37,603 nucleotides of DNA, taken from positions 1-37,603 of the forward strand of contig CAYHVY010000001.1 of NCBI GenBank assembly GCA_964360095.1, read 5' to 3'. Position 1 is the first letter of the stretch. Every line of letters begins with the position of its first letter. The DNA is from an uncultured Candidatus Peribacteria bacterium (GTDB taxonomy: Bacteria; Patescibacteriota; Gracilibacteria; UBA1369). Below are positions 7,259-37,603 of the stretch, in pieces. The notes under the pieces were generated by a model, which worked only from the letters and a program-made list of their open reading frames with translations, was not told where the DNA came from and ran no database searches. The translations under genes and the position numbers were made by a program.

Positions 7259-7333
7259 TGGTGCCTCTGGGGGGAATCGAACCCTCATCCCTGGTTCCGA
7301 AGACCAGCGCTTTATCCATTAAGCTACAGAGGC
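7259..7333 (-). tRNA. tRNA-Arg, anticodon UCG, with encoded CCA
   Basis: The reverse complement is GCCTCTGTAGCTTAATGGATAAAGCGCTGGTCTTCGGAACCAGGGATGAGGGTTCGATTCCCCCCAGAGGCACCA. It has a perfect 7-bp acceptor stem, a D arm GCTT/AAGC, an anticodon stem CTGGT/ACCAG with loop CTTCGGA, and a TTCGATT T-loop. Confidence 0.9.
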
Positions 7334-7424
7334 GTTTACTACATGCCCTTTCATTTTATAGTCCAAAACGACTTAAAGCCATAAGAGTTTTTTCTACCGT
7401 AGTCAAAAATACACGTGAGTATTT

Positions 7425-7453
7425 TTGACAATAGTAGAAAATACACATATAAT
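7425..7453 (+). promoter_or_regulatory. Consensus sigma-70 promoter TTGACA-17-TATAAT, probably producing a leaderless or near-leaderless mRNA
   Basis: TTGACA lies at 7425-7430 and TATAAT at 7448-7453, separated by an exact 17-nt spacer. The in-frame ATG at 7460 starts 7 nt after the -10 element. Confidence 0.6.
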
Positions 7454-7459
7454 GATGGC

Positions 7460-12000: not shown

Positions 12001-13171
12001 GACGAAGAAAGATAATCATGAATTAACTCAACAAATTGACGCACTTATAGGTAAGATCCAAAAATATAGCGATTCACTTAGATTAGAACGTGCAATTGAA
12101 AGGGAAGCAAGAGAAGATTTTGCTCAAAAACATATAGATGCAGCGGCAAACTTACATCCTGATATTTTTAGGCCAATTCTGTTTGAATTGATGATGAAAA
12201 ATCCTGTTGATTACGAACGGGTTATCTATCTTTCTAAACAAAGTGTCAAACTTGAAGCATCCGGATTGCATCAAGCTGCTAGAGATCTTAAGAATCTAAC
12301 TGGAGATTTTGCCACTGTAGATGGCAGTCCTTTAAAAACTGCGGAACAACGAGCTGCCTTTCTTGAAAAAATGTTGACGCTTTCGCCTCTTGAACATGAA
12401 TGGTATACAACAAGACCTGAAACAACTATTGACACTTCTTACTCTCGTTACGAGGAAAATTTCAATACACTTAAGGAGTTTAGTGCAAAATTTCTGAGCG
12501 AAAAGGTACTTCCTGGTTTAATCGCCAAAAACTTACCAATAAGTGAACTCATCTTGGAAATTCATCGGTGGCAAACACGCGGTTCACAAGCGCAATTGGA
12601 AATTTTAGGATCACCTGCCGAAGGATATGATATTTCTGGAAAAGTCCGCGATGTGCAGGTTTCTGTTGGAAATTACATAGCGCCTATCCCTGGTAAGGTT
12701 CCTGCACTGCTTGGAAAAATGTCAACAAGTATGCAAAACCTGGAAGTTCAGCTTACAAGTTTGAAAAAAACGAACCCAGCAGCTTATGAAAAAGCTGTGG
12801 TTAAAACGGCTTTGTATGCACTGCAAACTTTTGTTGACATTCATCCGATGCGAGATGGAAATGGGCGCACGAGCCGTACTTTATATGAATATTATATTGT
12901 CAAATTTTTAGGACCGACGAGTAAATATCGTAGACTTCCCATGACACAGCGTGATAACGGTGAACCTACTCTGCATGATGAATTACATCAAATGAACGGC
13001 AAACTGCAAAAGACTTTATATGAAAATAAGCCATATGGCAGGTTAGAAGGTCTATACGGGGATCAGCTTTCGAAAAAAATCGATGCAATTAGCCTCGCTG
13101 AACTTAATGCTGATCCGTTATACAAAGAATTCTTTGCAAAGTACAATACATTAATGGCATCATCTCCTTAA
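9002..13171 (+). CDS. Giant (1389 aa) Fic-domain protein: long helical N-terminal region, central Gly/Ala-rich hydrophobic region, C-terminal class II Fic (AMPylase-type) domain
   Basis: The Fic motif HPMRDGNGRTSR starts at nt 12842 (His1281). The inhibitory-helix motif SRYEEN, of form (S/T)xxxE(G/N), starts at nt 12443, which is 133 residues upstream of the His. The ORF is uninterrupted over 4.2 kb. Confidence 0.85.
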   Translation: MGEFDLQKADIITVEKQAGEKKHESLQQKLQTNRDLFTSHTDKVENALADALKSLTSQEAKDALKADQTKIRDFLKSVADKGRSILSGKEGAESVDQMIEGLRSAIKDAKNNIDFYTILDKSRELAKASIPGIKLVYDLQAKGGSDIDKKMDKATDQALGDLQVARNMFDAYKDKALPQTLKTIYDAELKKIDDQIAKILQIREAYTDIAGKEKKLAEIEQYFNNDNLTKNSNLARGQFDDIVKSKNLAPERLTVKLKSMGEQADKALTDLCKIKKEAVGVSRDALLPDQQKKYDEIVKKLGEQLQEMTGLKVYAKNQELIDRVNKTEGGKYLQMESKVINGQFVTAVTFTEEFQKLPELKQQEIKMALQGVSFEVALDVAKKTGLPEDKSWLEGQQKLDKGDRAGAKALFLDYVAKFKNNPEKRLQVENAKGMLRAILREDLNQVKEHFSLIKQTIEGRGGGVTGKFDELRSVHDKHGRLDAVNGFIKQAEGLIASGEALTIDEIYKKLPKLKDSIDLKSDGISMLDPFEQQQLLNEADPAKRRQNILKLARAAKAVELTALSAKYYEMYFADRIDGAKKSISREKIKADIDQEELTSSEFRAEIKAQIKSFHDSARQKFMDEYYKEHPGAKNPALSKDDPEVKAMKAAEEAWDKSYDAQKGNVYQQAKDVLIDIRYDKAAKIAIHKGVEAITRSGSGMTATEDEKIWKEAYGNIKGNVENITGEHLVFTQDDFYELQSKMAGSILTMEIATLAAMTVATGASAAIAGGALTSAGGGTAGFLIEGLVMHSTTAYLNEGKIDLSSPEFLRGLASTYATLGIMKATGLGGNVKLGGKAPSAVAEKTASSAIATVAKGGAEFLGKVTLDSTLMTGLSTLERGIVDKKWASFDEMAGEFGNNAITFLVIGGLHKVAEERAPTKKGIADTKAPTEHASRAYREGTVVAELSMADRKNIDHNPKNQPHDTELEAIIKDKNEVESDYNNMKKRLRSLRDQANLDLMTKKDNHELTQQIDALIGKIQKYSDSLRLERAIEREAREDFAQKHIDAAANLHPDIFRPILFELMMKNPVDYERVIYLSKQSVKLEASGLHQAARDLKNLTGDFATVDGSPLKTAEQRAAFLEKMLTLSPLEHEWYTTRPETTIDTSYSRYEENFNTLKEFSAKFLSEKVLPGLIAKNLPISELILEIHRWQTRGSQAQLEILGSPAEGYDISGKVRDVQVSVGNYIAPIPGKVPALLGKMSTSMQNLEVQLTSLKKTNPAAYEKAVVKTALYALQTFVDIHPMRDGNGRTSRTLYEYYIVKFLGPTSKYRRLPMTQRDNGEPTLHDELHQMNGKLQKTLYENKPYGRLEGLYGDQLSKKIDAISLAELNADPLYKEFFAKYNTLMASSP

Positions 13172-13184
13172 CCATCATACATTT

Positions 13185-14057
13185 ATGCTAGAAGAACATA
13201 TGAAAATTTACGATTCCAATGGCCAAGAAATTGCCGATATTGCCAAGGATAATGATGTAGTCCGACTTGTTATGCTATCGACAACAGGCACACATGAGCG
13301 AGTTCACGAAATTTTTTATGGCGTTGGAGATACTCAAGATCCTCAATTTGAAGCTAGGCTAAGAAATGCTTATGAAAGTAATGGATTCCGTTTTGAAAGT
13401 GCCAAGGATATTGAACAAAAGACTGCTAGAAATGTTTATTTTATCCACGAAAGCAATCTTATTGAAAATATAGTGGAAATTGATGAAAAACTTATTGGAG
13501 AGCGTTATAAAAAACGAACTCAACTGGGTTGTGTCGGCGCTTGGCTTCTCGGAGAAGATAGAGTAAAAGATAAACAACCGCTTTCTGGTAAAGATGTTAT
13601 AAGCATGCAACGTATGCTTACTGATGAACAAGCTATCTATGGACATTTTCTTGAAAATAAATACCGTGGTATCATACGCGGAGAAAACGATTTGGTGAGC
13701 ATTGGAGGACGCACTGTTATTCCGCCACGTCCCGAAGACTATGAAAGCTTTTTTACACGATTTAACGGTGGATTGCAGCAATTAAATCCAAGGAGCATTA
13801 GAGAGATCCTATGTTATCTTGCAAAAACCCATGTTGAATATGAAAGCATGCACCCTTTTGCTGATGGTAATGGCCGTACCGGAAGAAATATCGTCAATTA
13901 TGGCTTAAGCTACTTTAGTCTTCCAGTACTTGTCTTTACTAACCAGGATAAAGGAAAGTATTATGCAGGATTTATTGAAACAACTCAAGACATTTCAGTA
14001 ATGGAAGCATATTTTATAGAAAAATATCGTGAGCAAAATCCAGGATTGTTCCAATAA
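13185..14057 (+). CDS. Stand-alone class II Fic-domain protein, paralogous to the C-terminus of the upstream giant protein
   Basis: The canonical motif HPFADGNGRTGR begins at His223 (nt 13851). The inhibitory motif SNLIEN at residues 90-95 is also exactly 133 residues upstream of the His. The gene lies 13 nt after the giant gene. Confidence 0.85.
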   Translation: MLEEHMKIYDSNGQEIADIAKDNDVVRLVMLSTTGTHERVHEIFYGVGDTQDPQFEARLRNAYESNGFRFESAKDIEQKTARNVYFIHESNLIENIVEIDEKLIGERYKKRTQLGCVGAWLLGEDRVKDKQPLSGKDVISMQRMLTDEQAIYGHFLENKYRGIIRGENDLVSIGGRTVIPPRPEDYESFFTRFNGGLQQLNPRSIREILCYLAKTHVEYESMHPFADGNGRTGRNIVNYGLSYFSLPVLVFTNQDKGKYYAGFIETTQDISVMEAYFIEKYREQNPGLFQ

Positions 14058-14235: not shown

Positions 14236-14523
14236 TCATTTTTTAGACTTAAGATTATCCAAATGTTTTTTTGCCTGACTCCAATTTTTAACGCTTTTTA
14301 TTTTTTCACCAAGGCCGGCTTCTTGAGATGCCTTCAAAATCTCCTTTTCCTCCTGAATGGTAAAACCATTATCAGTAAGCAGTTGAAATGGAATCCCCTG
14401 ATGAATAATAATTTGTTTAAAATAAATTTTAACTGCAGAACTTATATCAATTCCAATTTCATCAAGAACTTTCTTGGTAGATTTCTTGATTATGGGATCG
14501 ATACGGACTTGAATTGTGGACAT
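14236..14523 (-). CDS. RelB/DinJ-family antitoxin-like protein with no cognate toxin gene nearby
   Basis: MSTIQVRIDPIIKKSTKKVLDEIGIDISSAVKIYFKQIIIHQGIPF matches the DinJ ribbon-helix-helix N-terminus. The internal ATG at 14523 is preferred over the track start at 14643. Confidence 0.65.
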   Translation of the reverse strand: MSTIQVRIDPIIKKSTKKVLDEIGIDISSAVKIYFKQIIIHQGIPFQLLTDNGFTIQEEKEILKASQEAGLGEKIKSVKNWSQAKKHLDNLKSKK

Positions 14524-14650
14524 AGCAAATGATAAAAAATAAATACCTAGACACATACATACTACATCAAGCGTAGTGATATTGTAAATACTATGTAGCG
14601 ACAAAATTTGATCAAACTGAGTAATAAAATTTTCCCTTGTCAACGTACGT

Positions 14651-16167: not shown

Positions 16168-18231
16168 ATGGCTAATATATATGCTGAAATTCTTTTATCA
16201 CGAAAAGTGGGAACAAATACCAACACTTTGACATACAGGGTGCCGGATGGACTTAAAGCTGTGCTTCAAAAAGGCAATATTGTCGGAATTGGCTTAAGAA
16301 ATAAGAAAACACGTGGTGTCGTAGCTAGTATTCATGAACATAAACCAGCATATGAAACGAAAGAGATTCTTGAAGTCGTTCAAAAGGCGGCGCACCTGAG
16401 TCCATGGCAGATTGAACTTCTTTTTTGGATGTCTGATTATTATTTTTGCCCTCCGCACAAGGTTTTAAAACTGTTTTTCCCAAATACGATCAGTCAAAAG
16501 AAAAAGCTGCCGCAGTGGCTGCCAAACGCGGAAGAAACACTATGTCAAAATCAAGGTAGGGAACAAAAAATTTTGTTCCCTACCTTGATTTTAACGACAG
16601 AACAGGAGCAGACCTTTGAAACCATCCTTAAAACGAACAAAAAAACCATTCTTTTGCACGGTATTACCGGTTCAGGAAAGACCGAAATCTATCGCCGGCT
16701 TGCGGCAAATCAAATTCAACAAAACAAACAAATACTGATTTTGGTACCGGAAATTTCATTGACTCCTCAAACTTTTCAGAATTTCAGGGAAGAATTTGGC
16801 AACGCGATTGCCCTTCTCCACAGCCAATTAACTGCAAAAGCAAAAGAAAAACATTGGTATGACATTTACCACGGTGAAGCAAAGATCATCATTGGATCGC
16901 GCTCGGCGCTGTTCGCGCCGTTCGCCGACTTGGGCATGATTGTGATGGACGAAGAACATGAATTTTCCTATAAACAGGACCAGTCGCCGCGTTATCATGC
17001 CCGGGATGTCGCTATAAAAATGGCTGAACTTTTAGGAATAAAATGTGTTTTAGGAAGCGCCACGCCTGCGCTGGAAACATATTACAACGCCGCTCAAGGC
17101 CACTATGAGCTGGTTACATTAAAACAACGCATACAAAAGCAAAACATTGTGACGCTGCCGGCGGTTACAATCATTGATCTGCGGGAAGAAATCCGCAAAA
17201 AAAACTTTTCCATTTTCAGTGAACTTCTCATCCAAAAAATAACCGAAAAACTTGAAAAACAAGAGCAGATCATTCTTTTTTTGAACCGCCGCGGCGCCGC
17301 CTGCGCCATCCTGTGCCGGGAATGCGGACATATTGAAAAATGCGACAACTGCGATGTGGCCATGACATATCATAAAAACTTAACGGTAGAGAGGGTGATT
17401 TTGCCAGCACAAAGGCTTATTTGCCATCATTGCGGAAGTATAAAAAACATTCCCCTGCTCTGCCCAAAATGCGACAGCGCTTTTATTCGCTACATTGGTC
17501 TGGGCACACAGCGCATTGAAGAAGAGATTAAAAAAATATTTCCAAAAGCGCGCATTTTGCGGGCTGACAAGGACACAACCAGCCAGCGCGGCAGCTTTGA
17601 AAAGCTTTACAATGCGTTTAAAAATCATGAGGCGGACATTCTTATTGGCACACAGATGATTGGTAAAGGCCTTCATTTGCCTCAGGTCAGCCTGGTTGGT
17701 GTTATTTTGGCTGATTTAAGCCTGACTATACCGGATTTTCGGAGCGCAGAGCGGACATTCCAGATTCTCACGCAGGTAGCGGGCAGAGCCGGTCGGGAAG
17801 CCAAAAAAGGCGAAGTCGTCATTCAGACTTATTTACCGGAAAATTATGCCATTCAAAAGGCAATAGAACACGATTATGCGGGTTTTTTTGAGGAGGAAAT
17901 GAAAGTCCGAAAAACGTTCGCGTATCCTCCAATAAATAAACTCATTAAATTGACTTTTATTGATAAAGATGCCAAAAAATGCCTACAGAAAGCCAAAAAC
18001 ATGCTGGACATTCTCAACGAAACCGTTCAAAAAAATGATCTGAAAAACGCCGTAACATCTATAACAAATTATCCAGCTCTGATTACAAGATTAAAAAATG
18101 AATACCGCTGGCATATCTTAATCACCGGCCAAAATCCTGCTTTGTTGCTGAAGGGTGTCTCTGAAAATGGATCAAAAATCCTGCATGATGTGGATGTAAG
18201 GATTGATGTAGATCCGACGAGTGTTGTGTAA
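16168..18231 (+). CDS. priA: Primosomal protein N' (replication restart helicase PriA)
   Basis: Walker A is GITGSGKTEIY and the DEEHE box is present. The Cys-rich zinc region reads CRECGHIEKCDNCD...CHHCGS...CPKCDS. Confidence 0.9.
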   Translation: MANIYAEILLSRKVGTNTNTLTYRVPDGLKAVLQKGNIVGIGLRNKKTRGVVASIHEHKPAYETKEILEVVQKAAHLSPWQIELLFWMSDYYFCPPHKVLKLFFPNTISQKKKLPQWLPNAEETLCQNQGREQKILFPTLILTTEQEQTFETILKTNKKTILLHGITGSGKTEIYRRLAANQIQQNKQILILVPEISLTPQTFQNFREEFGNAIALLHSQLTAKAKEKHWYDIYHGEAKIIIGSRSALFAPFADLGMIVMDEEHEFSYKQDQSPRYHARDVAIKMAELLGIKCVLGSATPALETYYNAAQGHYELVTLKQRIQKQNIVTLPAVTIIDLREEIRKKNFSIFSELLIQKITEKLEKQEQIILFLNRRGAACAILCRECGHIEKCDNCDVAMTYHKNLTVERVILPAQRLICHHCGSIKNIPLLCPKCDSAFIRYIGLGTQRIEEEIKKIFPKARILRADKDTTSQRGSFEKLYNAFKNHEADILIGTQMIGKGLHLPQVSLVGVILADLSLTIPDFRSAERTFQILTQVAGRAGREAKKGEVVIQTYLPENYAIQKAIEHDYAGFFEEEMKVRKTFAYPPINKLIKLTFIDKDAKKCLQKAKNMLDILNETVQKNDLKNAVTSITNYPALITRLKNEYRWHILITGQNPALLLKGVSENGSKILHDVDVRIDVDPTSVV
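16547..16592. repeat. 46-nt near-perfect palindrome (REP-like GTAG...CTAC hairpin) in frame inside priA
   Basis: AAAATCAAGGTAGGGAACAAAA-aa-TTTTGTTCCCTACCTTGATTTT has 22-nt arms. It encodes QNQGREQKILFPTLIL in the linker before the helicase Walker A. Confidence 0.8.
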
Positions 18232-21764: not shown

Positions 21765-21804
21765 TTTGTTGTAGAGCGCAGGCATGCCTGCGCTCTACAA
21801 CAAA
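21765..21804. repeat. Perfect 40-bp palindrome (GTAG...CTAC core) downstream of pyrG; possible terminator or REP-like element
   Basis: TTTGTTGTAGAGCGCAGGCATGCCTGCGCTCTACAACAAA equals its own reverse complement. The ATG at its centre is the track start (21784) of the next ORF. Confidence 0.8.
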
Positions 21805-21825: not shown

Positions 21826-23223
21826 ATGCCAAATTTTCGCTATCAGGTAATCAATCCCGAAAATAAAGAACTTTCGGGTATCATCAACGCTCCGGATGAA
21901 AAAAGCGCCAGACTGGAACTAAATCAGCTTGGTTTTTCTATTATCACCATAGAAGATGTAGGGACCGAAACGCTAGAGGCGGGTCTGCAACCCGCCCCCG
22001 CCATTCCGCTTTTTGAATTTGCGGCGCTGGATAAAAATCAAAAACGCGTGGCCGGAACCATTCAGAGCGAAAACCTCTACAGCGCCTACAAAAGGCTTGT
22101 TAAAGAGTATGTTTTTGAAGTTGAGTATCTTTTTGACGCAGGAATAAAAGAAGAACAGAAAATTGCAGAAAAACAAAAAGGCGTTTTTGAAATGCAAAAC
22201 CGGCTGGATATGGAGGAATTCGCTGAAAAAAAGAAAAAAATGGGTAGTGAACTGGACATTCAGGCGTTTGAACGGCAACAGACTGTGCTTGCAGAGCAGG
22301 TTGGCTTTGTTCTGAAAAAAGTAAAGGAGATACTGGATCTTTACGAAACCGAAATAAAGCCGGAAACAAAAGAGAAAATACGCCGTTATGTGGATAAAAT
22401 TTTACGCATCAAAAACAGCACAAATCTTGATTATATCCGTAACACATGCGAAGAACTACTCACATTTATTCAAAAAGAAGAACTTTTTTTACATGAAGAT
22501 CTTCGGCGAAAAGAGCACACGAAACTGCTTCTAGAAGCCAAGGGTATGATGATGCAACTTCACCGCAGTAAATTGACGCCGCTGCCGAATATCAAAGAAT
22601 TGTTCATGAATTGGCGTCAGGAACACATACTGGACAATGAACAACCTAATACTTTTGAGCGATTTTTAAATTTTTTGATTGGAATATTGATCGGTTTTAC
22701 GCAGGAAAGCGCGGAAATATTGGAAATTCACCGTCGCGTCCGTGTGTTAAATCAACAGCTATGGCAATATATCATTCTTTATTTTCAGGATGTAAGTCCG
22801 GAATTTAAAAATGAAGCAAAATCAGGTTTTAAAAATCTTCTGCATGAACGAAAAAAACTTGTCCACCAGCTAAAAACCGTCCGTCAACAAAATAAACGCT
22901 CATCAGAATCCGCAACCAAATCGGACAGATGGGAAAATCTCAAACAGGAACTCCATGATGTCAGCGGATGGCTGCTTGCTTTTTACCTATGCTACTATTT
23001 TGCATCACTTTATTTGAACAATAAAAAAATGGGGATCGGCCCTTTGTCGGCCAATTTTGACATCCTCCGGTCATCTTTTCTGAAATATTTTTTTGCCATT
23101 CTTTTCCTTTTTCACGTTTCCCTTGCGGTTAAAATCAATTTTTTCAGACGCAGCGAAATAGCGACGTTTATCGTGACTCCCCTTTTTTTGCTCGGAAGCA
23201 TTCTTATTTTGCTCAATTTCTGA
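21826..23223 (+). CDS. Hypothetical membrane protein with two N-terminal PilC/GspF-N-terminus-like modules and 3 C-terminal TM segments
   Basis: FRYQVINPENKELSGIINAPDEKSARLELNQLGFSIITIE and FEFAALDKNQKRVAGTIQSENLYSAYKRLVKEYVFEVEYL resemble the extreme N-terminus of T2SS-F/PilC proteins. The ATG at 21826 is preferred because the track start lies inside the palindrome. Confidence 0.5.
   Translation: MPNFRYQVINPENKELSGIINAPDEKSARLELNQLGFSIITIEDVGTETLEAGLQPAPAIPLFEFAALDKNQKRVAGTIQSENLYSAYKRLVKEYVFEVEYLFDAGIKEEQKIAEKQKGVFEMQNRLDMEEFAEKKKKMGSELDIQAFERQQTVLAEQVGFVLKKVKEILDLYETEIKPETKEKIRRYVDKILRIKNSTNLDYIRNTCEELLTFIQKEELFLHEDLRRKEHTKLLLEAKGMMMQLHRSKLTPLPNIKELFMNWRQEHILDNEQPNTFERFLNFLIGILIGFTQESAEILEIHRRVRVLNQQLWQYIILYFQDVSPEFKNEAKSGFKNLLHERKKLVHQLKTVRQQNKRSSESATKSDRWENLKQELHDVSGWLLAFYLCYYFASLYLNNKKMGIGPLSANFDILRSSFLKYFFAILFLFHVSLAVKINFFRRSEIATFIVTPLFLLGSILILLNF
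21973..22001. repeat. Degenerate copy of the GAGLKPAPT-type hairpin element, in frame in a linker
   Basis: CTAGAGGCGGGTCTGCAACCCGCCCCCGC matches the minus-strand form of the 37170-37198 element at 21 of 29 positions. It encodes LEAGLQPAPA. Confidence 0.6.
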
Positions 23224-23265
23224 CATTGCCACGCTTTCGCGAGAACCAAACAATATCAAATAACC

Positions 23266-23300
23266 ATAATTCAAAATTTGAAATTCAAAATTAAAAATTT
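23266..23300. repeat. Five 7-nt units (ATAATTC AAAATTT GAAATTC AAAATTA AAAATTT) before the lgt start
   Basis: Read directly from the sequence. The tract ends 3 nt before the ATG at 23304. Confidence 0.7.
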
Positions 23301-25742: not shown

Positions 25743-26273
25743 CTATTCCATTTTAATAACCTCATATTCCACCACGCCTGATGGAATGCGGACTTTAACT
25801 TTGTCACCCTGGCGGCAATCCAGAAGCGCCGCGCCTACCGGAGATTCATTTGAAATTTTATGACCGAGAGGATCAGCTTCCGTTGAACCAACGATGGTAT
25901 ATTCTTCATTAACAGCTGATTTTTTTGACATATTTTTGACAATCACTTTTGTTCCCAACTGAACTGTAGCCATGTGGTGCTTTTCTTCAATGATTTTGGC
26001 GTATTTGACCTTTTCTTCAAGTTCAATAATACGCCCCTCCACAAAAGCCTGTTCGTTTTTGGCCTCTTCATATTCGGAGTTTTCAGAAAGATCTCCATAA
26101 GAAATGGCTTCTTTAATACGTCCCGCGACTTCGCGCCGTTTGACATTTCTAAGCTGATCCAGCTCTTCTACAAGTTTTTTTAATCCATCTTTTGTGATAA
26201 GGATGAATTTATTATCGTCAGACGCGACGGTGGTCGTTGCCCCAACTGTGGCTGTTTTTGATGCGTTAGGCAT
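25743..26273 (-). CDS. greA: Transcription elongation factor GreA
   Basis: ITKDGLKKLVEELDQL...REVAGRIKEAISYGDLSENSEYEEAK is the coiled-coil region. The C-terminal globular domain follows. Confidence 0.9.
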   Translation of the reverse strand: MPNASKTATVGATTTVASDDNKFILITKDGLKKLVEELDQLRNVKRREVAGRIKEAISYGDLSENSEYEEAKNEQAFVEGRIIELEEKVKYAKIIEEKHHMATVQLGTKVIVKNMSKKSAVNEEYTIVGSTEADPLGHKISNESPVGAALLDCRQGDKVKVRIPSGVVEYEVIKME

Positions 26274-26279
26274 GAGATT

Positions 26280-26354
26280 AATTAAGAATTAAAAATTAAG
26301 AATTGGCAATTGATTGATCATTGAAAATTGATTGTGAATTGAAAATTGTGAATT
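26280..26354. repeat. Degenerate 7-bp-period AATT tract filling the rpoD-greA spacer
   Basis: ATT anchors occur at 26281, 26288, 26295, 26302 and 26309. They then continue with phase shifts at 26313, 26320, 26327, 26331, 26338, 26345 and 26352. Confidence 0.7.
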
Positions 26355-26356
26355 GT

Positions 26357-27502
26357 TTAGGGCTTAATCCTGATACTCGTCGGGTGCTCCTTCATTTTTT
26401 GCAATACTTTGGCTTCAATTTGGCGTATTCGTTCACGCGTAACGCGAAATTCATGCCCCACTTCTTCCAGGGTGTGGCCCACGCCGTCCTTAAGACCAAA
26501 ACGCATTTCAATAATTTTGCGCTCGCGCGGGGAAAGATACTGAAGCATTTCATGGATATTCTCCTTGATCAATTGCCGATTGGTTGCCTCGGAAGGCGAA
26601 AGCGCGTCATCGTCTTCTATAAAGTCTCCGAGTTTACTGTCTTCTTCGGTGCCAACAGGAGCTTCCAGCGAAACAATATCCTGTGAAATTTTCAGAATAT
26701 GGCGAACTTTTTTCACGTCCATATCCATTTCAGCCGCAAGTTCTTCGGCCAATGGCTCACGGCCAAGTTCCTGGACCAGGCGGCGTTGGGCGTGGGTAAG
26801 CTTGTTTATGGTTTCCACCATGTGTACCGGAATGCGGATAGTGCGCGCCTGATCGGCGATGGCGCGGGTGATCGCCTGACGGATCCACCATGTGGCATAG
26901 GTAGAAAACTTGAATCCCCTTTCAGGATCAAATTTTTCCACGGCTCTGAATAAACCAATATTACCCTCCTGGATTAAGTCCAGAAAGGAAAGCCCTCTGC
27001 CAATATATTTTTTTGCGATGCTCACAACCAGACGCAGATTGGCCTCCGCCAGACGTTGTTTTGCAGTCTGATCGCCTTTTTTGATACGGCGCGCCAAATC
27101 AATTTCTTCTTTTGCGGTCAAAAGCGAAACTTTGCCTATCTCACAAAGATAGAGACGAATGGAGTCGTTAGCAATCTCCCGCAATTCTATGGATTTTGCG
27201 ACTACTTTTTTTCCTTTTACTTCCTTGACCGCGACTATTTGTTCTTCCTCTTCCACTTCCTCCGTGTGAAAAGAAATGGCATCCTTGGCATCAATGACTT
27301 CAATTCCCAAATCCAAAAAAAGACCGTAGATTTCATCAAGTAAAATAAGATCTTCTTCAATATTGGGCATCGCCTTCATCAGCTCCTGTTGAGTGACAAA
27401 GCCGTGCTCTCTGCCCTTTTTGACCAAATCCCGCACTTCTGCCGGAAACTGGCCGAGCTTGTCATCGGAAGGGTGAACAATAAATTTTTTGGTTCGGGCC
27501 AT
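26357..27502 (-). CDS. rpoD: RNA polymerase primary sigma factor
   Basis: Region 2.4 is [29 protein letters not shown] and region 4.2 is [24 protein letters not shown]. The ATG at 27502 is preferred over the TTG at 27520, which lies in the repeat tract. Confidence 0.92.
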
Positions 27503-27510
27503 GTTCTTTA

Positions 27511-27617
27511 CAATTATCAATTTTCAATTTTCAATTTACAGTTTTCAATTAATTTTCAGTTATCAATTTTCAATTTTGAATTCAATTTCTAATTACTAAT
27601 TCATAATTCATAATTAC
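27511..27617. repeat. About 15 tandem degenerate heptamers (CAATTTT-type) between the dnaG stop and the rpoD start
   Basis: The units read CAATTAT CAATTTT CAATTTT CAATTTA CAGTTTT CAATTAATTTT CAGTTAT CAATTTT CAATTTT GAATT CAATTTC TAATTAC TAATTCA TAATTCA TAATTAC. The dnaG stop codon lies in the last unit. Confidence 0.8.
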
Positions 27618-29443
27618 TTACTCAAGGCATCCAGTTCCCTGATGAAACGCCTGGATTCATCTTTTTGACCCTGTTTTTCCGTGTCTCCAATTTGATGCTG
27701 AAGAGTAAGGCGTTTTTTATTAAGCGTATTCTTGATGAGCTTGTCAAGTAGAAGCTTCATTTCACGCTCAACTGCCTCTTCACCAATTTCACCGTAAAAT
27801 TCAGAGATATACAATGAAACAAGAGTTATTTTTTGGGCTAATTCATAAGGTAAAGAAGCTCTCAGGAGGTCTACATCCCAAACGCCCAAGCCATTATACT
27901 GATCGGAAAATTGCTTGTAAATAGCTTTCATGTCACCTGCAAAGTAATCGGATGAAATTTTGTCCTTAAGCAGTAGCCCTATACGGGGATACTCAAGAAT
28001 AAAAGCAATCAACAACTCTTCCGCCTGAAATTTTTTTGATTTAGCCGCGGATGGTTCGTTTGAATCCGAAAGACCGACATGCAAACGAGCCGGATGAGTT
28101 ACGGGTAATTTAAAATTTTTCAATTCATCGTACAGCTGTTTCTCGGTAACACGAAAATCACGCGCCAAAATGCGCACATATTCATCTTTTGCAAGAGGGC
28201 TTTTGAGTGTATGTAAAAATGGAGAAAAATCCTGCAAAATCTTCCGTTTTAAGGATGCATCCTCTTGGCGCAGCGCTGTATTAGCCTCGCTTTTGCTCGG
28301 TCTGGCAGAAAAATCATCGGCGCCATGGATTGAAATTAAGCGCTTATACAGATAATCACCATATCTTTCCGCTTTTTGAATGATCAAAGATAAATCGGCG
28401 GGAGAGTGTTGGCAAAATTCGGCAATATCCTTGCCTTCTGGAAGTTCAAGAATTTTTACTTCAAAATCAAATTCCTGTGCCAGTTCAAAAGCGCGTTTTG
28501 CCGCTTCCTGACCGGCTAAATCCATATCAAAAGCAAGACACAGTTGAGCTGAAAATGGTTTTAATAACCGCAACTGCTGACTTGTTAATGCTGTTCCGGA
28601 AACAGCCGCAACATTGGTTATTCCAGCCTGGTACGCGGCAATCATATCCATATATCCTTCAACCAGAACTGCGGATTTTTGAGTTTTTATGGAGGCTTTA
28701 GTCCAGGAAAAACCATAGAGAATATTGCTTTTGTGATAAATGGCCGTCTCCGGAGAATTGAGATATTTGGGATCCTGTTCATGCGCAAGAGCGCGGCCTC
28801 CAAAAGCGACGATGCGCCCCAAAGAATCGGTAATCGGAAACATAAGCCGTCCCCTAAAACGGTCATGGATACTGTCAAGTGTAGTTTCGCGGGAAAGAGC
28901 CAAGCCTGAAGCCACGAGCAGTTTCCGGCTAAACCCTTCTTTTAAAAGCATCTTAAACGTCGCCTCATAATCATCGGGAGAAAAACCGAGACGAAAAAGT
29001 TTAATCGTCTCATCGTTCAATCCACGTCGGCGAAGATACTCCAAAACTTTTGCTCCATTTTCACTATTCCACAACTGCCATTCATAAAAAGCAGCAACCG
29101 TTTCATGAACACGGAGAAGCTGCTCTTTTTCATCCTTATCAATAGGAGATTGCAGAGCGTACTTTTTTAATTCAACACCTGTCCGCTCAGCTAAAATTTT
29201 AAGCGCATCAACAAAATCAACTCCCTCCACTTCCCGAATAAATTGAAACACATCGCCGCCCTTGTGACAGCCAAAACAATAGGCAATCCCTTTTTGCGGC
29301 GAAACAATAAAACTCGGCGTTTTTTCGGCATGAAAAGGACAAAGTCCCTTCAAATTCTGACCGATTTTCTTGAGCTGCACATACTGGCTGACAAGATCCT
29401 CTATGGATAGGCGGCTTTTGATTTCATCGCGGGCATCGGACAT
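27614..29443 (-). CDS. dnaG: DNA primase
   Basis: The zinc finger is CPFHAEKTPSFIVSPQKGIAYCFGCHKGGD and the TOPRIM motif is VLVEGYMDMIA. Confidence 0.92.
   Translation of the reverse strand: MSDARDEIKSRLSIEDLVSQYVQLKKIGQNLKGLCPFHAEKTPSFIVSPQKGIAYCFGCHKGGDVFQFIREVEGVDFVDALKILAERTGVELKKYALQSPIDKDEKEQLLRVHETVAAFYEWQLWNSENGAKVLEYLRRRGLNDETIKLFRLGFSPDDYEATFKMLLKEGFSRKLLVASGLALSRETTLDSIHDRFRGRLMFPITDSLGRIVAFGGRALAHEQDPKYLNSPETAIYHKSNILYGFSWTKASIKTQKSAVLVEGYMDMIAAYQAGITNVAAVSGTALTSQQLRLLKPFSAQLCLAFDMDLAGQEAAKRAFELAQEFDFEVKILELPEGKDIAEFCQHSPADLSLIIQKAERYGDYLYKRLISIHGADDFSARPSKSEANTALRQEDASLKRKILQDFSPFLHTLKSPLAKDEYVRILARDFRVTEKQLYDELKNFKLPVTHPARLHVGLSDSNEPSAAKSKKFQAEELLIAFILEYPRIGLLLKDKISSDYFAGDMKAIYKQFSDQYNGLGVWDVDLLRASLPYELAQKITLVSLYISEFYGEIGEEAVEREMKLLLDKLIKNTLNKKRLTLQHQIGDTEKQGQKDESRRFIRELDALSK
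28251..28308. repeat. 58-nt GC-rich repeat, copy 1, in frame inside dnaG
   Basis: It aligns without gaps to 30664-30721 at 41 of 58 positions, including an identical 15-mer TGTATTAGCCTCGCT. It encodes ARPSKSEANTALRQEDASL. Confidence 0.75.
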
Positions 29444-29450: not shown

Positions 29451-29478
29451 GAATTATGAATTTCGAATTTTGAATAAG
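29451..29478. repeat. Four 7-nt units (GAATTAT GAATTTC GAATTTT GAATAAG) just upstream of the dnaG start
   Basis: Read directly from the sequence. The dnaG ATG is at 29443 on the minus strand. Confidence 0.7.
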
Positions 29479-29533
29479 GGGAACCTACTATAGCAGATAA
29501 TTTCTTTAGGAGGTAATTTTAGAAAAAATTTAA

Positions 29534-30607
29534 TTATTTTTCATTTTGATGTTTCTTCCCAAAATGCACGGCAAAGCCGCCGACAATAAACATTAAAATG
29601 ACTAAAACCGCTATGGCGTAGACCTTTTGCAAAGGTCCCAAAAAAATGGCGATGCCTCCAAAAAGAGCGCAAACGGCATAAATGAATAAAACCGCTTTCC
29701 GCTCGGAAAGGCCAATTTCAATCAGCCGATGGTGTAGATGATGTAAATCTCCGCGAAATGGAGATTTTCCGGATACGATGCGCCTCAAAATCACCCAGAC
29801 GGCATCCAATATGGGAAATCCAAGAATTAAAAATGCCGTTGTTATTTTTCCACCGGAAAAAATAGCTAACGTGGCCAGCAGAAAGCCAAGAAACATGCTT
29901 CCGGTGTCGCCCATGAGAATTTTTGCCGGATAAAAATCAAAAAACATGAAAGCAAAAGCAATTGCAAACAAAATAATGCTTAAAGTGGCCACAGGAACCT
30001 GTGAAGAAATATCAAAATGAATATCTGGACGAATGCTCAGAAAAAAAATACTCAAAGCGGCAATAGCTGAAACACCGCTTGGCAAGCCATTTAATCCATC
30101 CAGAAAATTCATGGTGTTAACAATCGTCACGACCCAAAGAATTGTAAAAAGCGCCCCCAGAAGAGAAATACTGACTATGGCTGTATCAATGGCTAAACTT
30201 ATGGCCTGTTTATCCAAAATAAATGGCGCGCCAAATGGATTTGAAATGGAACGTATGCCTATGCCGCTTGCCACCAGTACTCCAGCGGCCAGTATCTGCG
30301 CAAAAAGACGCAACACGGGGCTTAAACCAAAGAGATCATCCGCGAAACTGACACAAGCGATCATTAAAGCGCCCAGCAGCAAGCCTAAAACATGAATGTC
30401 AATTTTTACAAAAAGTAGAACAGAAATAAAAAAAACAGCCACAATGACAAGGCCACCATAATATGGAATTGGATTGCGCTTGAGGCCGTATTGCCACGGA
30501 CGATCGGTAAGTCCGAACTTCGGGAAAAATTTTAACGCAAGCATGGTCAAAAAAATCGTCAGGGTAAAGGCAAAAATGGCGGGGATTAGGTATTGGATAA
30601 TAGTCAT
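29534..30607 (-). CDS. Glycosyltransferase family 4, WecA/TagO-like polyprenyl-phosphate HexNAc-1-phosphate transferase
   Basis: NFLDGLNGL, MGDTGSMFLGF and DLHHLHHRL motifs are present in a polytopic protein. The ATG at 30607 (MTIIQYLIPAIF) is preferred because the track extension to 30730 runs through the GC-rich repeat. Confidence 0.8.
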   Translation of the reverse strand: MTIIQYLIPAIFAFTLTIFLTMLALKFFPKFGLTDRPWQYGLKRNPIPYYGGLVIVAVFFISVLLFVKIDIHVLGLLLGALMIACVSFADDLFGLSPVLRLFAQILAAGVLVASGIGIRSISNPFGAPFILDKQAISLAIDTAIVSISLLGALFTILWVVTIVNTMNFLDGLNGLPSGVSAIAALSIFFLSIRPDIHFDISSQVPVATLSIILFAIAFAFMFFDFYPAKILMGDTGSMFLGFLLATLAIFSGGKITTAFLILGFPILDAVWVILRRIVSGKSPFRGDLHHLHHRLIEIGLSERKAVLFIYAVCALFGGIAIFLGPLQKVYAIAVLVILMFIVGGFAVHFGKKHQNEK

Positions 30608-30659
30608 ATCTTGGTTTGAAAAAATGGCAGGAGTAACAAACATGCTTGTTACATACACG

Positions 30660-31391
30660 TTAAAAGGACGCGCCCAAGGGGCGCGGCATTGTATTAGCCT
30701 CGCTGCGGCTCGGCCTGATAGTTGGCACAAGAAAATTACGGCACGTTAAAGCGGTAATCTTTTCAAACGGAACAGCGTTTTCTATGGAAAAAGAGCCGAT
30801 TTTTGTGCGCCGCAGTGCTTCCACATATGCGCCGCATTGCAGAATTTGACCCAGGTCATGGGCAAAACTTCTGATGTAAGTGCCGCTGCCGCAGTGTACG
30901 GAACATTCCAATGCTGGATATGAAAAATGTTGAATGTCCACGCGGAAAAAAGTAACTGTTTTGGACTTTACATCGGGAATTTGGCCTCTTCTAGCCAAAC
31001 TGTAGGCGTGTTCTCCTTTGATTTTTTGAGCGGAATAAATGGGTGGTTTTTGAATCTGCTGGCCACGAAAATGCTTTTTTAAAACTTCCTCAAGTTTTGG
31101 ACGGTCAAATATTTGTGGCTTTCCGTGGGGATAAATCGGCCCTTCGGAATCATAAGTTGCGGAAACAGCGCCAAAACTAATGGTAGCGTCATATGTTTTA
31201 TCCAGACCCTCCAGATCATGCAGAGATTTTGTGGCTTTTCCAAAGGCAAAAATCATCAATCCGCTTGCCAGAGGGTCAAGAGTTCCGGCGTAACCTATTT
31301 TTTTCATGTCAAAAAGCTTGCGAAACACCTTCACCATAAAAAACGAAGTGATCCCTTTTGGCTTGTCTATGAGAAGAAAACCTTCATCCAT
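30660..31391 (-). CDS. truB: tRNA pseudouridine-55 synthase
   Basis: GFLLIDKPKGITSF and GYAGTLDPLASGL (catalytic Asp) are present. The ATG at 31391 is preferred, because the upstream MNFEFQI of the track ORF is encoded by the heptamer tract. Confidence 0.88.
   Translation of the reverse strand: MDEGFLLIDKPKGITSFFMVKVFRKLFDMKKIGYAGTLDPLASGLMIFAFGKATKSLHDLEGLDKTYDATISFGAVSATYDSEGPIYPHGKPQIFDRPKLEEVLKKHFRGQQIQKPPIYSAQKIKGEHAYSLARRGQIPDVKSKTVTFFRVDIQHFSYPALECSVHCGSGTYIRSFAHDLGQILQCGAYVEALRRTKIGSFSIENAVPFEKITALTCRNFLVPTIRPSRSEANTMPRPLGASF
30664..30721. repeat. 58-nt GC-rich repeat, copy 2, forming the 3' end of the truB ORF
   Basis: It matches copy 1 at 41 of 58 positions, on the same strand and in the same frame. 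It encodes IRPSRSEANTMPRPLGASF, followed by the stop, and contains the hairpin CGCGCCC-aag-GGGCGCG. Confidence 0.75.
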
Positions 31392-31418
31392 AATTTGAAA
31401 TTCGAAATTCATAATTCA
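31391..31418. repeat. Four 7-nt units (TAATTTG AAATTCG AAATTCA TAATTCA) spanning the murE stop and truB start
   Basis: Read directly from the sequence. The murE TGA (31409-31411) lies inside the tract. Confidence 0.7.
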
Positions 31419-32734
31419 ACCCTCACCGCGGTACTAAAGATTTCGCGAACCACCTTGCGGTCATCCCAGGGAACTTTTTTATCGCCGATCATTTGGATTT
31501 CTTCGCAGCCTTTACCGGCAATCACAACGACGTCATTTTCTTCAGCTAAAGAAAGCGCCAATTTAATAGCCTCATAACGATGCGGAATTTTCCAAAACCG
31601 TTCCCCTTCTCGCCGGTTGATACCCGCCGCAACTTCCTCAATGATCCGCCACTCTTTTTCTTCGTAAGGATCGTCATCCGTCACGATTACATAATCAGCA
31701 TATTTATCAGCTATCGCGCCCATTTTAGGACGCTTGGCCTTATCCCGTCCCCCGCCCGTAGCTCCAAAAACAACATACAGCTTGCCTTTCGTCAGTTTTC
31801 TATAGAGCGCAAGCAGTTTTTCCAGGGATTCATGCGTATGGGCGTGATCAACCACAACAGTGTATTTTTGGCCGCAATCAATCGTTTCAAGCCGTCCGGG
31901 GATGCCAGAAGCTTTTTCCAAAGCCGTTTTAATAACAGCAAGATTGATGTTATTCGCCAAAGCGACCGTAGCCGCAGCTACGGCGTTAGATACATTAAAT
32001 TCACCGGGTAATTTCAGATTGATTTCAATATGACTATTGGGCACATGTAATTCAAATGTAGTGCCACTGGCTTTTGGAAGCAAATCAGAGGCATAACATG
32101 TGCCGCTGCCCATACCATATGTATATTTGCGATCAACTAAAAACTGGTCAAAATAAAGAAAATTCGGATCATCCTTATTTAGAACGGCAATTTTTGGAAT
32201 GCGCGACTTGCGCGGTGAACGGTTCAAATGCGCAAAAAGAAGCCCTTTTATACGCAGATAATTTTGAAATCCGCCATGATATTCAAGATGATCTTCCCCG
32301 ATATTGGTAAACGCCACCGTGTCAAAATTAACCCCCCAAATGCGGTTTTGATGGATCGCGTGGGAAGAAATCTCCAATACCGCGTGAGTACAGGACTCCT
32401 TGACCATCTGTCTAAGTATTTTCTGTAGAAAAAATGGCCCCAATGTGGTGATTTTTGTGAGATTGCTCCATTGCAAATTCCCAACACGAAAATTGATAGT
32501 TGAGGTCATGCCAACTTTGTAACCCGCTTCCGTAAAAATTGTTGTGATTAAATTCGTAGTGGTTGTTTTTCCCTTCGTGCCGGTCACGCCAATAACATTT
32601 AAATATCGCGATGGAAAGCGATAATACACTGCCGCCATAATCGCCAGAATCTGGTGATAAAAGAGACGAAAAGGATTGCCTGGAGAAATCTTATTTTTGA
32701 GGTATTTGATGAGCATATTTTGAGATCCTAACAT
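31409..32734 (-). CDS. murE: Mur ligase, MurE-like UDP-N-acetylmuramoyl-L-alanyl-D-glutamate amino-acid ligase
   Basis: VIGVTGTKGKTTT (P-loop), TNIGEDHLEYHG, DHAHTHESLE and GGGRDKAKRP are present. The substrate-selectivity motif reads DDPY instead of DNPR. Confidence 0.85.
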   Translation of the reverse strand: MLGSQNMLIKYLKNKISPGNPFRLFYHQILAIMAAVYYRFPSRYLNVIGVTGTKGKTTTTNLITTIFTEAGYKVGMTSTINFRVGNLQWSNLTKITTLGPFFLQKILRQMVKESCTHAVLEISSHAIHQNRIWGVNFDTVAFTNIGEDHLEYHGGFQNYLRIKGLLFAHLNRSPRKSRIPKIAVLNKDDPNFLYFDQFLVDRKYTYGMGSGTCYASDLLPKASGTTFELHVPNSHIEINLKLPGEFNVSNAVAAATVALANNINLAVIKTALEKASGIPGRLETIDCGQKYTVVVDHAHTHESLEKLLALYRKLTKGKLYVVFGATGGGRDKAKRPKMGAIADKYADYVIVTDDDPYEEKEWRIIEEVAAGINRREGERFWKIPHRYEAIKLALSLAEENDVVVIAGKGCEEIQMIGDKKVPWDDRKVVREIFSTAVRVEL

Positions 32735-32736: not shown

Positions 32737-32765
32737 GTAAGGAACGGTTTGAAACCGTTCCTTAC
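32737..32765. repeat. 29-nt GTA...TAC hairpin between the riboflavin kinase stop and the murE start
   Basis: GTAAGGAACGGTTTGAAACCGTTCCTTAC has the same length and architecture as 37170-37198. It contains the riboflavin kinase TAA stop. Confidence 0.75.
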
Positions 32766-34451: not shown

Positions 34452-34493
34452 AAATTCATAATTTTTAATTTCTAATTTCTAATTACTAATCAC
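34452..34493. repeat. Six 7-nt units (AAATTCA TAATTTT TAATTTC TAATTTC TAATTAC TAATCAC) between the hpf stop and the ligase-like start
   Basis: Read directly from the sequence. The hpf TGA (34490-34492) lies in the last unit. Confidence 0.75.
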
Positions 34494-35989: not shown

Positions 35990-37603
35990 CTACGGTTTCT
36001 GACGAATTATAATATCCAAATTAGCTCCCGGAATATCCACCACGCGAATACCACGTAAAAGGGCTTCGTAATTTTTCTCAATGGCTTCAATACGAATATC
36101 CAGTTTTTTTACCGCTTTTTCGTAAAAATCCAGAATCTGCTGTAGAGCCGAAAGACGAGCTTTTAAAGCTGTCTGTTTTTGAGCAACATCAACAAAACTC
36201 TGAAGTAGAAAATTTGCTTTTTCGCCGGCAAGACCTTCCAAAGACGCAAAAAAGTCCTGTTCAAGATTTTTTCTGTCAGGTCCAAGACTGTTAAAAGAAA
36301 TCTTCAAATCATCAATCTGCAAACCAAGTTCCTTAATAATTCTCGCGCTATTAGTGCGAACATTTTTAATTTTGCCAAGATAATCGGCAAGTTTAGAATC
36401 GCGCTGCGATGTCTGGTTTAACATGGCATACACATCTGTATCATACAGACTTTTGAGCTCACGGAGATTATGAATATACTCAATAAAAAGAGTTGCTCTT
36501 GCAAGCATATCTTTATATTGTCCATAATGATAAGCGGCCGTAATACCTGTTTCGCCTGCGACTGCAGGCTCGGCAAGTTTTCCAAAATAAAAGGCGTTTT
36601 TTATTGATGGAGTAACAACGTCTGTCAACGAACCGCTGTTTTTCGCAAAGATATAAGCGGTTCTGATTCCCCACGCGCGCAAAAATCCTTCATCTACACG
36701 GATTTCAACTGGCGCGGGAGGTGTTTTTGATTGGAAAAAAGCCATTATTTGACCATATGCAGATCTGCCGATATTGACCGCGATCCCGCTCGCAAACAAA
36801 AATCCCAAAAAAACAACAACTGCTGTAAGAACCACATATTTGAGGCGCAAATGCGCTCCCGCAAAAGCGGCGCCGTTTCCAAACTTTTTCTTAAAACCCG
36901 CTGAAAAACTGCCGCCAACCCCGGCTTTGGCCGCACCGCCAGTAGATTTTTCCTGTATTTCAGCGGCCTCAGCATGATCACTTAGCTCCTCCTGCGTAGA
37001 AATCTCCTGCTGATTGATAGGCACGGATTCTTCCACAAATTCTTCCTGCTCAATGATTTCAGGAGCGGTATTTTCCTCGGCTTCAGTAGGTGCGGGCTTC
37101 AAATCCACCCCTACGTCATGGGATGGAAAAAGCTCCGGAAATGGCTCTTTTGCTTCGTATTCGGGAGAGGTAGGGGCAGGTTTCAAACCCGCCCCTACCT
37201 CTTGAGGTTCAGGCTGCGGTTCTGGAGGCACGGACACGAATTCAGATTCCGGCTGGACAGTTGAAGGTTGAATATCGGACAATGACGGCTCTATCACGGC
37301 AGGCTCTTTTTTCGCTTCTGGTTCTGGCTGCACCACGGAACGCGGATCCGAGTTCCCTACGTCAGGGTTTTTTAATTCTTGCGCTTCTTCTGTGGAATGA
37401 AGGTCTTCGTTCCCTACGTTGGTTTCTTGAGGCGGAGGTCCAATGAAAGTGTGGTGCTGAACAGACGGATAAATGTCTTCCAGGGACTCCGTCAACGGCA
37501 AAGGCGCAAGATCTTGTACCTCTGCTTTTTGCGATTCCGATCCTGGTTCTAGCGGTAATTGTGTTTTTTCCTTTGAAGTTTTTTTAACTGTTTTTTTCTT
37601 TTC
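35990..37603 (-). CDS. Hypothetical membrane-anchored protein with a Pro/Glu-rich N-terminal region (5' end outside the window)
   Basis: The frame stays open from the TTG at 37501 to the window edge (EKKKTVKKTSKEKTQLPLEPGSESQKAEVQDLAP...). It has one TM segment (YVVLTAVVVFLGFLFASGIAV) followed by a helical C-terminal domain. Confidence 0.6.
   Translation of the reverse strand, partial: EKKKTVKKTSKEKTQLPLEPGSESQKAEVQDLAPLPLTESLEDIYPSVQHHTFIGPPPQETNVGNEDLHSTEEAQELKNPDVGNSDPRSVVQPEPEAKKEPAVIEPSLSDIQPSTVQPESEFVSVPPEPQPEPQEVGAGLKPAPTSPEYEAKEPFPELFPSHDVGVDLKPAPTEAEENTAPEIIEQEEFVEESVPINQQEISTQEELSDHAEAAEIQEKSTGGAAKAGVGGSFSAGFKKKFGNGAAFAGAHLRLKYVVLTAVVVFLGFLFASGIAVNIGRSAYGQIMAFFQSKTPPAPVEIRVDEGFLRAWGIRTAYIFAKNSGSLTDVVTPSIKNAFYFGKLAEPAVAGETGITAAYHYGQYKDMLARATLFIEYIHNLRELKSLYDTDVYAMLNQTSQRDSKLADYLGKIKNVRTNSARIIKELGLQIDDLKISFNSLGPDRKNLEQDFFASLEGLAGEKANFLLQSFVDVAQKQTALKARLSALQQILDFYEKAVKKLDIRIEAIEKNYEALLRGIRVVDIPGANLDIIIRQKP
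37086..37114. repeat. Degenerate copy of the GAGLKPAPT-type hairpin element, in frame
   Basis: GTAGGTGCGGGCTTCAAATCCACCCCTAC encodes VGVDLKPAPT on the minus strand. Confidence 0.6.
37166..37202. repeat. 37-nt REP-like hairpin (GTAG...CTAC) in frame inside a CDS
   Basis: AGAGGTAGGGGCAGGTTT-C-AAACCCGCCCCTACCTCT has a single A/C mismatch that becomes a G-U pair on the coding (minus) strand. It encodes EVGAGLKPAPTS. Confidence 0.8.

Follow-up and report, generated by a model that had tools for sequence, protein, structure and literature searches.

The window analysed here, a 37,603-nucleotide (nt) stretch of DNA (contig CAYHVY010000001.1) from an uncultured Candidatus Peribacteria bacterium, carries on its minus strand dnaG, coding for a DNA primase of 609 amino acids (27614-29443), and truB, coding for a tRNA pseudouridine-55 synthase of 250 amino acids (30660-31412). 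Both were identified through homologues and Pfam domains (Zn_ribbon_DnaG, DNAG_N and Toprim over residues 5-346 of DnaG; TruB_N and TruB_C_2 over residues 31-222 of TruB). A gene for a family-4 glycosyltransferase lies between them (29534-30643), truB has a Mur-ligase-like gene as its neighbour (31409-32734), and an rpoD-like gene (26357-27520) and greA (25743-26273) complete this part of the minus strand. Homologues place the organism among Peregrinibacteria-like candidate-phyla-radiation bacteria, and Hainich groundwater well H52 is the source of contigs that match the window at 99.8-99.9% identity. Here we examine two similar GC-rich stretches, one in dnaG and one in truB, which are probably copies of a lineage-specific dispersed repeat of 54-56 nt that multiplied within one Hainich Peregrinibacteria-like population.

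The initial annotation had paired 28251-28308 with 30664-30721 as a 58-nt repeat. The two stretches do lie at these positions and align without gaps, with 42 rather than 41 of 58 positions identical (28245-28304 and 30658-30717 align, likewise ungapped, at 44 of 60), but the element itself, once its limits were refined, measures 54 nt in dnaG (28251-28304) and 56 nt in truB (30662-30717), not 58. What it had said of sequence composition and reading was borne out: the identical 15-mer TGTATTAGCCTCGCT occurs exactly twice in the window, the two stretches have a GC content of 57% and 66% against 41% for the window, and both are read on the minus strand in a common frame, the one given at the time. 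Within the window by itself, the statistical support for the similarity is modest. Comparison with shuffled controls gave a divided answer, in that the pair is the top direct repeat in a self-BLAST of the window (score 28), and yet a score as high came from 1 of 60 first-order Markov shuffles. By our own calculation, about one exact 15-mer repeat would also arise by chance in 37.6 kb. We therefore rely on evidence from outside the window. A consensus taken from an unlinked copy on contig L044, described below, gave E values of 2.5e-7 for the dnaG copy and 2.5e-22 for the truB copy.

The copy in dnaG is a clean insertion. Reading CAGACCGAGCAAAAGCGAGGCTAATACAGCGCTGCGCCAAGAGGATGCATCCTT in the sense direction, it encodes DnaG residues 381-398, RPSKSEANTALRQEDASL, a peptide that, in an alignment of 22 DnaG proteins, was found only in the window and in L001, an independent contig (99% identical) with the same filled site. 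The remaining 20 orthologues, P0002 (80% identity), P0003 (75%) and 18 more distant ones, have an 18-residue gap in its place. At the DNA level, contigs L002 and L003 lack exactly 54 nt (18 codons) relative to the window, the empty site in both of them reading TTTTTCCGC (or GATGATTTTTCCGC), followed directly by GAAACG. Filled and empty sites differ by the 54 added nt and nothing more, with no target duplication. To the left of the insertion (28305-28310, minus strand) the sense strand reads TTCTGC, where the empty sites have TTCCGC, and to its right (28246-28250, minus strand) AAAAC, where they have GAAAC. The insert lies 35 residues past the TOPRIM domain and, in an AlphaFold model of DnaG (mean predicted local distance difference test score, pLDDT, 78), occupies a low-confidence loop (375-388) and the start of a helix (389-412), in line with the earlier proposal that the segment had been inserted into a tolerant linker. 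This copy is a decayed one. It differs from the L044 copy at 12 positions, 10 of them changes from G/C to A/T, has kept 11 of the 18 residues of the peptide and has a destroyed hairpin (-5.5 kcal/mol), and it is still recognised by nhmmer at E=1.1e-15. A different 18-residue insert, VQHNVAIRSQQTSANETI, is present four residues upstream in the DnaG of a more distant relative (P0004, 64% identity, encoded at L045:438-2276); its DNA is unrelated to the element, which rules it out as a family member. Because this unrelated insert sits in the same linker, the DnaG linker is a recurrent site of length change.

In truB the copy (30662-30717, minus strand) reads CAGGCCGAGCCGCAGCGAGGCTAATACAATGCCGCGCCCCTTGGGCGCGTCCTTTT in the sense direction, is 56 nt long and encodes the C-terminal tail of TruB, RPSRSEANTMPRPLGASF. 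It supplies the last 18-19 codons of the gene, and its final T is the first base of the TAA stop codon (30660-30662). The closest TruB orthologues, P0122 (85% identity, ending in YLTIDRP) and P0123 (78%, ending in FLVNSI), terminate where the window tail IRPSRSEANTMPRPLGASF starts. Alignment thus supports the view that the segment is extra relative to the closest orthologues, although it is a C-terminal extension and not an internal insertion. The truB gene of the closest relative, L004, ends in GA-CAGGCC-ATGA, with the first six bases of the element already at the junction. The sequence of the truB copy recurs in two independent assemblies, L049 and L050. Its 3' part (30662-30685, minus strand) resembles a terminator, with a 7-bp all-GC stem, CGCGCCC-CTT-GGGCGCG (30669-30685), followed by TCCTTTT (30662-30668); this hairpin (-13.8 kcal/mol) was the top match of a terminator scan of the 27-32 kb region. 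TruB proteins in the clade of the window organism are of a short form, about 228-250 residues without a PUA domain, while relatives at 55-60% identity have about 290-320 residues with a C-terminal PUA-like extension. Directly 3' of the truB copy (30607-30652) the start of the glycosyltransferase gene seems partly duplicated, with MFVTPAIFSNQD ahead of MTIIQYLIPAIFA and only the second form in relatives, and an AT-rich hairpin, GTAACAAGCATGTTTGTTAC, lies at 30633-30652. Between truB and the glycosyltransferase gene, L004 has a spacer of 34 nt, L005 has an overlap of the two genes, and about 70 additional bases are present in the window.

Further copies were recovered through two peptide searches, a six-frame search with the peptides of all four open frames, which reported matches at E<=10 and so leaves single 18-residue matches hidden, and a search in which a three-peptide profile was compared with a library of 1.84 billion representative proteins that has a single member for each 50% cluster. 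Copies are therefore undercounted by both. The four-frame search recovered P0241, an anti-sigma-like protein of 193 residues encoded beside an extracytoplasmic function (ECF) sigma factor on a contig from Hainich well H32, whose C-terminal end reads STN-RPSRSEANTAPRPLGASF-LPKN. The underlying DNA (L044:1411-1466) is identical to the truB copy at 52 of 54 positions, with flanks at random identity (5 of 14 and 4 of 10), which fixes the ends of the element. The profile search recovered P0241 again together with P0243, a fragment of the 16S rRNA methyltransferase RsmE; its other two matches, P0242 and P0244, are unrelated tandem-repeat proteins. A cluster mate of P0243, P0247, is an intact RsmE of 281 residues that carries the element in frame, HLSA-RPSRSEANTAPRPLGASL-NNEA (L046:10196-10249 and L048:859-912), and alignments to solved RsmE structures in the PDB break exactly at the element, where the query is about 21-38 residues longer. 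A second copy in the 20-kb rsmE locus, copy B (L046:1913-1965), has a 2-nt deletion and lies in a region of this low-coverage contig that has stops in all six frames and no clean open reading frame (ORF).

A hidden Markov model (HMM) built from these five copies found each of them at E between 1e-13 and 1e-19 and nothing else below E=0.2 in 111 kb (the window and related loci), and it detected no copy in the 36.8 kb of this total that comes from sister lineages. Thus the suggestion that a repeat family has spread into coding sequence holds, with at least three more copies at unlinked loci of Hainich contigs (RsmE, the anti-sigma-like protein and copy B) that have the same sharp ends. Assembly ERZ1292621 yields both L048, with the RsmE copy, and L049, which is 99.9% identical to the window, at equal coverage, and from this common assembly and coverage we infer that the copies very probably share one population. 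Exact scans for AGCNNNAGCGAGGCTAATACA gave 6 matches in genome_contigs and 11 in metagenome_contigs, all with random flanks and no family member among them; a 15-mer scan of viral_contigs gave 21 matches whose flanks were at random identity, again with no family member. A second viral scan with a family-derived pattern had no match, nor did a BLAST of the consensus against phage and plasmid collections. The element thus appears not to be widespread, in collections that apparently do not include the Hainich assemblies. At L044:903-935 there is a partial, diverged copy of the 3' half of the element (ATGCCACGCCCCCTGGGTAAATATTTTT), which forms the start of P0241 (MIMPRPLGKYF), keeps MPRPLG with three nucleotide differences, all synonymous, and is missed by nhmmer at E<10.

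Taken together, these comparisons show the element to be a discrete unit whose ends do not vary and which occupies at least five unlinked sites. In dnaG and truB it is a later arrival than the split from relatives at 80-85% protein identity. Its sense consensus is CAGGCCGAGCCGCAGCGAGGCTAATACAGCGCCGCGCCCCTTGGGCGCGTCCTT(TT), with a GC content of 56-72% in a host of 40-41%. There are no terminal inverted repeats, as its ends, CAGGCCG and CGTCCTT, complement each other at best at 5 of 7 positions (judged by eye on the alignment), and the flanks of the five copies have no direct repeats. Folding of both strands, as had been suggested, brought out a local hairpin in the 3' half, but the overall fold was not significant on either strand (z-scores -0.8 to +0.7). 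The 3' half consists of a 7-bp all-GC hairpin (17 nt) followed by TCCTTTT, and the 5' half forms a stem of 3-4 bp at most. Hairpin and T run are intact in the two copies at gene ends, those of truB and P0241 (-14.0 kcal/mol in the latter). The internal rsmE copy keeps a hairpin of -11.9 kcal/mol and has lost its T run (TCCTTAAAC), the internal dnaG copy has lost the hairpin, and in copy B, which has no clean ORF, the hairpin is weakened (-6.0 kcal/mol). The truB, L044 and RsmE copies are 96-98% identical in nucleotide sequence, third codon positions included. As the dnaG copy and copy B have in common the loop variant CCAAGAG in place of CCCCTTGGG, and the dnaG, RsmE and B copies, unlike that of truB, the 3' end GCATCCTT, the family has sublineages, and truB was not simply the source of the dnaG copy. 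Within the window, Rfam at gathering thresholds found one tRNA and nothing else, and on L044 at E up to 10 it returned only noise, so that the element matches no described RNA family.

In DnaG, TruB, RsmE and P0241, the element is read in one orientation and one frame, giving the peptide RPSRSEANTAPRPLGAS(F/L) with the pattern RPS(R/K)SEANT..R...AS. The conserved core has stops in two of the six frames and is open in the other four. The peptide of the sense frame is hydrophilic and rich in Pro, Ser, Ala, Arg and Thr, whereas the antisense frames give peptides that contain Cys or are hydrophobic. The three copies found without frame bias (dnaG, truB and P0241) are all in the sense frame, for which chance would account with a probability of about 0.03-0.06. 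We read the common frame as a tolerance filter, as has been proposed for Rickettsia palindromic elements (RPEs). Persistence within genes would be helped by a length of 18 codons, by the lack of stops in the sense frame and by a hydrophilic peptide that may be tolerated in loops and tails. At gene ends, as in truB and P0241, where it is intact, the terminator-like 3' half may be harmless or even of use. Within genes it would be selected against and also exposed to AT-biased mutational decay, as the destroyed hairpin of the dnaG copy and the lost T run of the rsmE copy suggest.

The surroundings of the copies bear on how they may have been made. The empty dnaG site reads TTCCGC-G-AAAC and the RsmE copy is flanked by TTCCGC-T on its left and AAAC on its right, so that 6 nt to the left and 4 nt to the right are shared at a fixed register, a coincidence to which our own calculation assigns a chance of about 1e-5. 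Copy B has TTCCGG as its left flank, and TTCCGC, TTCTGC or TTCCGG stands directly 5' of three of the five copies; AAAC or AAC is also found 3' of the RsmE and truB copies. The element would be non-autonomous, and we can suggest ways of copying with low confidence only. It may insert by way of a single-stranded, hairpin-dependent reaction beside a short target, much as IS200/IS605 or REP-RAYT systems do, or it may be copied from an existing copy by templated synthesis guided by microhomology. The shared flanks and the truB junction fit both modes equally and favour neither. A bolder reading, which we regard as possible but unlikely, makes the element a mini-cassette of candidate-phyla-radiation bacteria that carries a terminator and is actively mobile, with an insertion mechanism not yet described for such short units. 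It would then home either to a target in two parts (TTCCGC / AAAC) or to sequence with microhomology to the element's 5' end, and would do so without inverted repeats, target duplication or an enzyme encoded by the element. Such a cassette would furnish gene ends with transcription terminators, and essential proteins, primase among them, with new peptide loops.

Several points weigh against our reading of the stretches as copies of a dispersed repeat that multiplied in one population. About 60 kb of the population is covered, so that genome-wide copy number, orientation and frame bias are extrapolations. The assignment of L044, L046 and L047 to the window's genome is drawn from site, GC content and element identity, and two of the extra copies came from peptide searches that favour the sense frame. 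Among the approximately 60 kb of population DNA, Pfam identified no transposase (Y1 enzymes included) in the window or in L046. The element lacks terminal inverted repeats and a target duplication, it has no significant fold beyond the local hairpin, and the terminator activity of its 3' half is a prediction. Furthermore, the TTCCGC flank is missing in two of the five copies (truB and L044).

Other explanations can be set against this body of evidence. That the two stretches are a chance similarity between GC-rich patches of an AT-rich window might have seemed plausible from the window alone, with one exact 15-mer repeat expected and an equal score in 1 of 60 shuffles. It is already refuted by the match of the dnaG copy to a consensus from another contig (E=2.5e-7), by its match to the family HMM (E=1e-15) and by the independent definition of the dnaG segment as an insertion; we give it practically no credence. 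An artefact of assembly or binning, through chimeric reads or contaminating GC-rich sequence, is suggested by the low coverage of the source assemblies (about 0.3-3x on several contigs), yet the dnaG copy is present in two assemblies (the window and L001), the truB copy in three (the window, L049 and L050) and the RsmE copy in three (L046, L047 and L048), with reading frames intact throughout, which makes this source of error extremely improbable.

A biological alternative is that about 54 nt of the truB 3' end and terminator region were copied just once into dnaG, for example by template switching during replication, without any repeat family. The two window copies are only 2.4 kb apart on the same strand, AACG stands 3' of both, and truB of L004 ends in CAGGCC-ATGA, which would allow the initial 6 nt of the element to be native to truB. 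However, three more copies with the same 5' and 3' ends occupy unlinked loci (RsmE, P0241 and copy B), and the loop variant CCAAGAG and the GCATCCTT end tie the dnaG copy to copy B and the RsmE copy and not to truB, so that we consider a single local duplication very unlikely. It is also rather improbable, if somewhat less remote, that the peptide is a functional module, such as a degron, an interaction tag or a C-terminal signal, spread and kept by selection with DNA similarity as a secondary effect. All four coding copies do have one frame and orientation, and the partial copy at the start of P0241 keeps MPRPLG through three synonymous differences. Set against this are the 96-98% identity of the truB, L044 and RsmE copies at third codon positions as elsewhere, a GC content of about 70% in a host of 40%, and the lack of functional relation between host proteins in which the peptide is internal in two cases and C-terminal in two. 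Moreover, no frame is free of stops around copy B, and the dnaG peptide has diverged freely.

Certain known classes of sequence were also rejected. An integron attC site would have R''/R' core sites, which are absent here, and would be an imperfect palindrome over its full length, which the element is not. A CRISPR repeat with its spacer is contradicted by the conservation of the two halves from copy to copy, and an insertion of 54 nt is not the motif enrichment of an uptake signal sequence; a tmRNA tag was considered from sequence and dropped. A template repeat/variable repeat (TR/VR) pair of a diversity-generating retroelement does not fit either, as the ORFs of the window include no reverse transcriptase, the copies number more than two and lie at unlinked loci, and the differences in dnaG are decay from G/C to A/T and not adenine-specific.

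We therefore return to a dispersed repeat, for which RPEs are the closest known system in behaviour. RPEs are dispersed repeats that add, in frame, a conserved peptide to unrelated proteins (PMC10969869). Like RPE-1 and its relatives, the element is dispersed, lineage-restricted and inserted in one frame into unrelated housekeeping genes (PMC10969869), and as in RPEs, where the added peptide falls in tolerant surface regions (PMC10969869), the DnaG insert lies in a loop of low pLDDT. The analogy with palindromic elements drawn in the initial annotation holds for the in-frame spread into genes but not for structure, as the hairpin is confined to the 3' half. RPEs are about 100-150 bp long and palindromic throughout. 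This element, whose host is of a different phylum and not a member of the Rickettsiales, so that sequence homology to RPEs is not expected, is just 54-56 nt long and not palindromic as a whole, forming a single local 7-bp hairpin, and so falls outside the structural definition of an RPE. With the pneumococcal SPRITE it has in common a small dispersed unit with a terminator-like GC stem-loop and T run (PMC10969869), which here are intact in the truB and L044 copies and degraded in those of dnaG, RsmE and B. SPRITE, however, is intergenic and longer, whereas this element lies inside ORFs and is translated, and its role in termination is a predicted one. Its lack of terminal inverted repeats and target duplication, its GC-rich subterminal hairpin and the short 5' sequence that recurs at three of the five copies are reminiscent of repetitive extragenic palindromic (REP) sequences, BIME and RAYT, and of IS200/IS605-type elements. 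Unlike REP sequences, which are extragenic, 20-40 nt long, begin with a GTAG-type tetranucleotide and often form inverted pairs, it is 54-56 nt long with four of five copies in ORFs. IS200/IS605 elements need hairpins at both ends; here a strong one lies near the 3' end, with a stem of 3-4 bp at most in the 5' half. The absence of terminal inverted repeats and target-site duplication also sets it apart from MITEs, the miniature transposable elements that end in inverted repeats. The mobile GC clusters of yeast mitochondria are short GC-rich hairpin units scattered through a very AT-rich genome and now and then inserted in frame in a coding gene (var1). These clusters differ from the element in being organellar, usually palindromic and of different sequence families. 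Our literature searches returned no report of such an element in candidate-phyla-radiation bacteria, which is weak negative evidence. The element thus represents a new family of a known kind, similar to RPE, REP and SPRITE and much shorter than RPE.

Other repeats and gene groups were observed in the window. A second family of GC-rich hairpins, of the GGTAGGGGCAGGTTTCAAACCCGCCCCTACC type, occurs at 37166-37202, 37087-37111 and 21974-21998, within two ORFs, 35990-37501, which has no Pfam match, and 21826-23223. In the second of these the unit encodes LEAGLQPAPA in a variable linker, and because this linker is as long as that of the L003 orthologue, the unit is not a clean insertion. Long near-perfect palindromes include one of 40 nt, perfect, between pyrG and the next gene (21765-21804), and one of 29 nt after the Mur-ligase-like gene (32737-32765), both probably terminators, as well as one of 52 nt inside the priA ORF (16544-16595) and an imperfect one of 70 nt upstream of ORF 7415-8581, beside a tRNA gene (7381-7450). 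AT-rich short repeats of the AATTTTCAATTTT and AATTCAAAATT types recur in numerous intergenic spacers, and also near gene starts, on both strands (27507-27582, 23262-23299, 31379-31416, 34455-34484, 1611-1634, 26280-26356 and 29451-29480), and could be UP-like or promoter elements, or else a further family of repeats. The window also holds a defence/toxin-like gene cluster (5275-6555, 6548-7288, 9002-14057 and 14236-14643), with an AbiEii nucleotidyltransferase toxin and its upstream partner, a Fic-domain protein of 1389 residues with another Fic protein after it, and a RelB antitoxin.

Genomes of the candidate phyla radiation are small, streamlined and generally described as repeat-poor. The presence of a young repeat in a primase, a tRNA pseudouridine synthase and an rRNA methyltransferase points to proliferating selfish DNA even in such genomes, in the form of a small non-autonomous dispersed repeat that is tolerated in frame and is so far limited to one groundwater lineage. 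In the annotation of metagenome-assembled genomes, inserts of this kind account for 'linker' peptides particular to one lineage and for unexpected C-terminal extensions; they are possible strain markers and can confuse the assembly of low-coverage populations. The shared flanks, TTCCGC and AAAC, offer a handle on the copying of elements that have neither inverted repeats nor target duplications, and the copies, with hairpins preserved at gene ends but eroded within genes, amount to a small natural experiment on selection against internal terminators. For the proteins concerned, the finding means that even essential ones can gain loops and tails in a single step.

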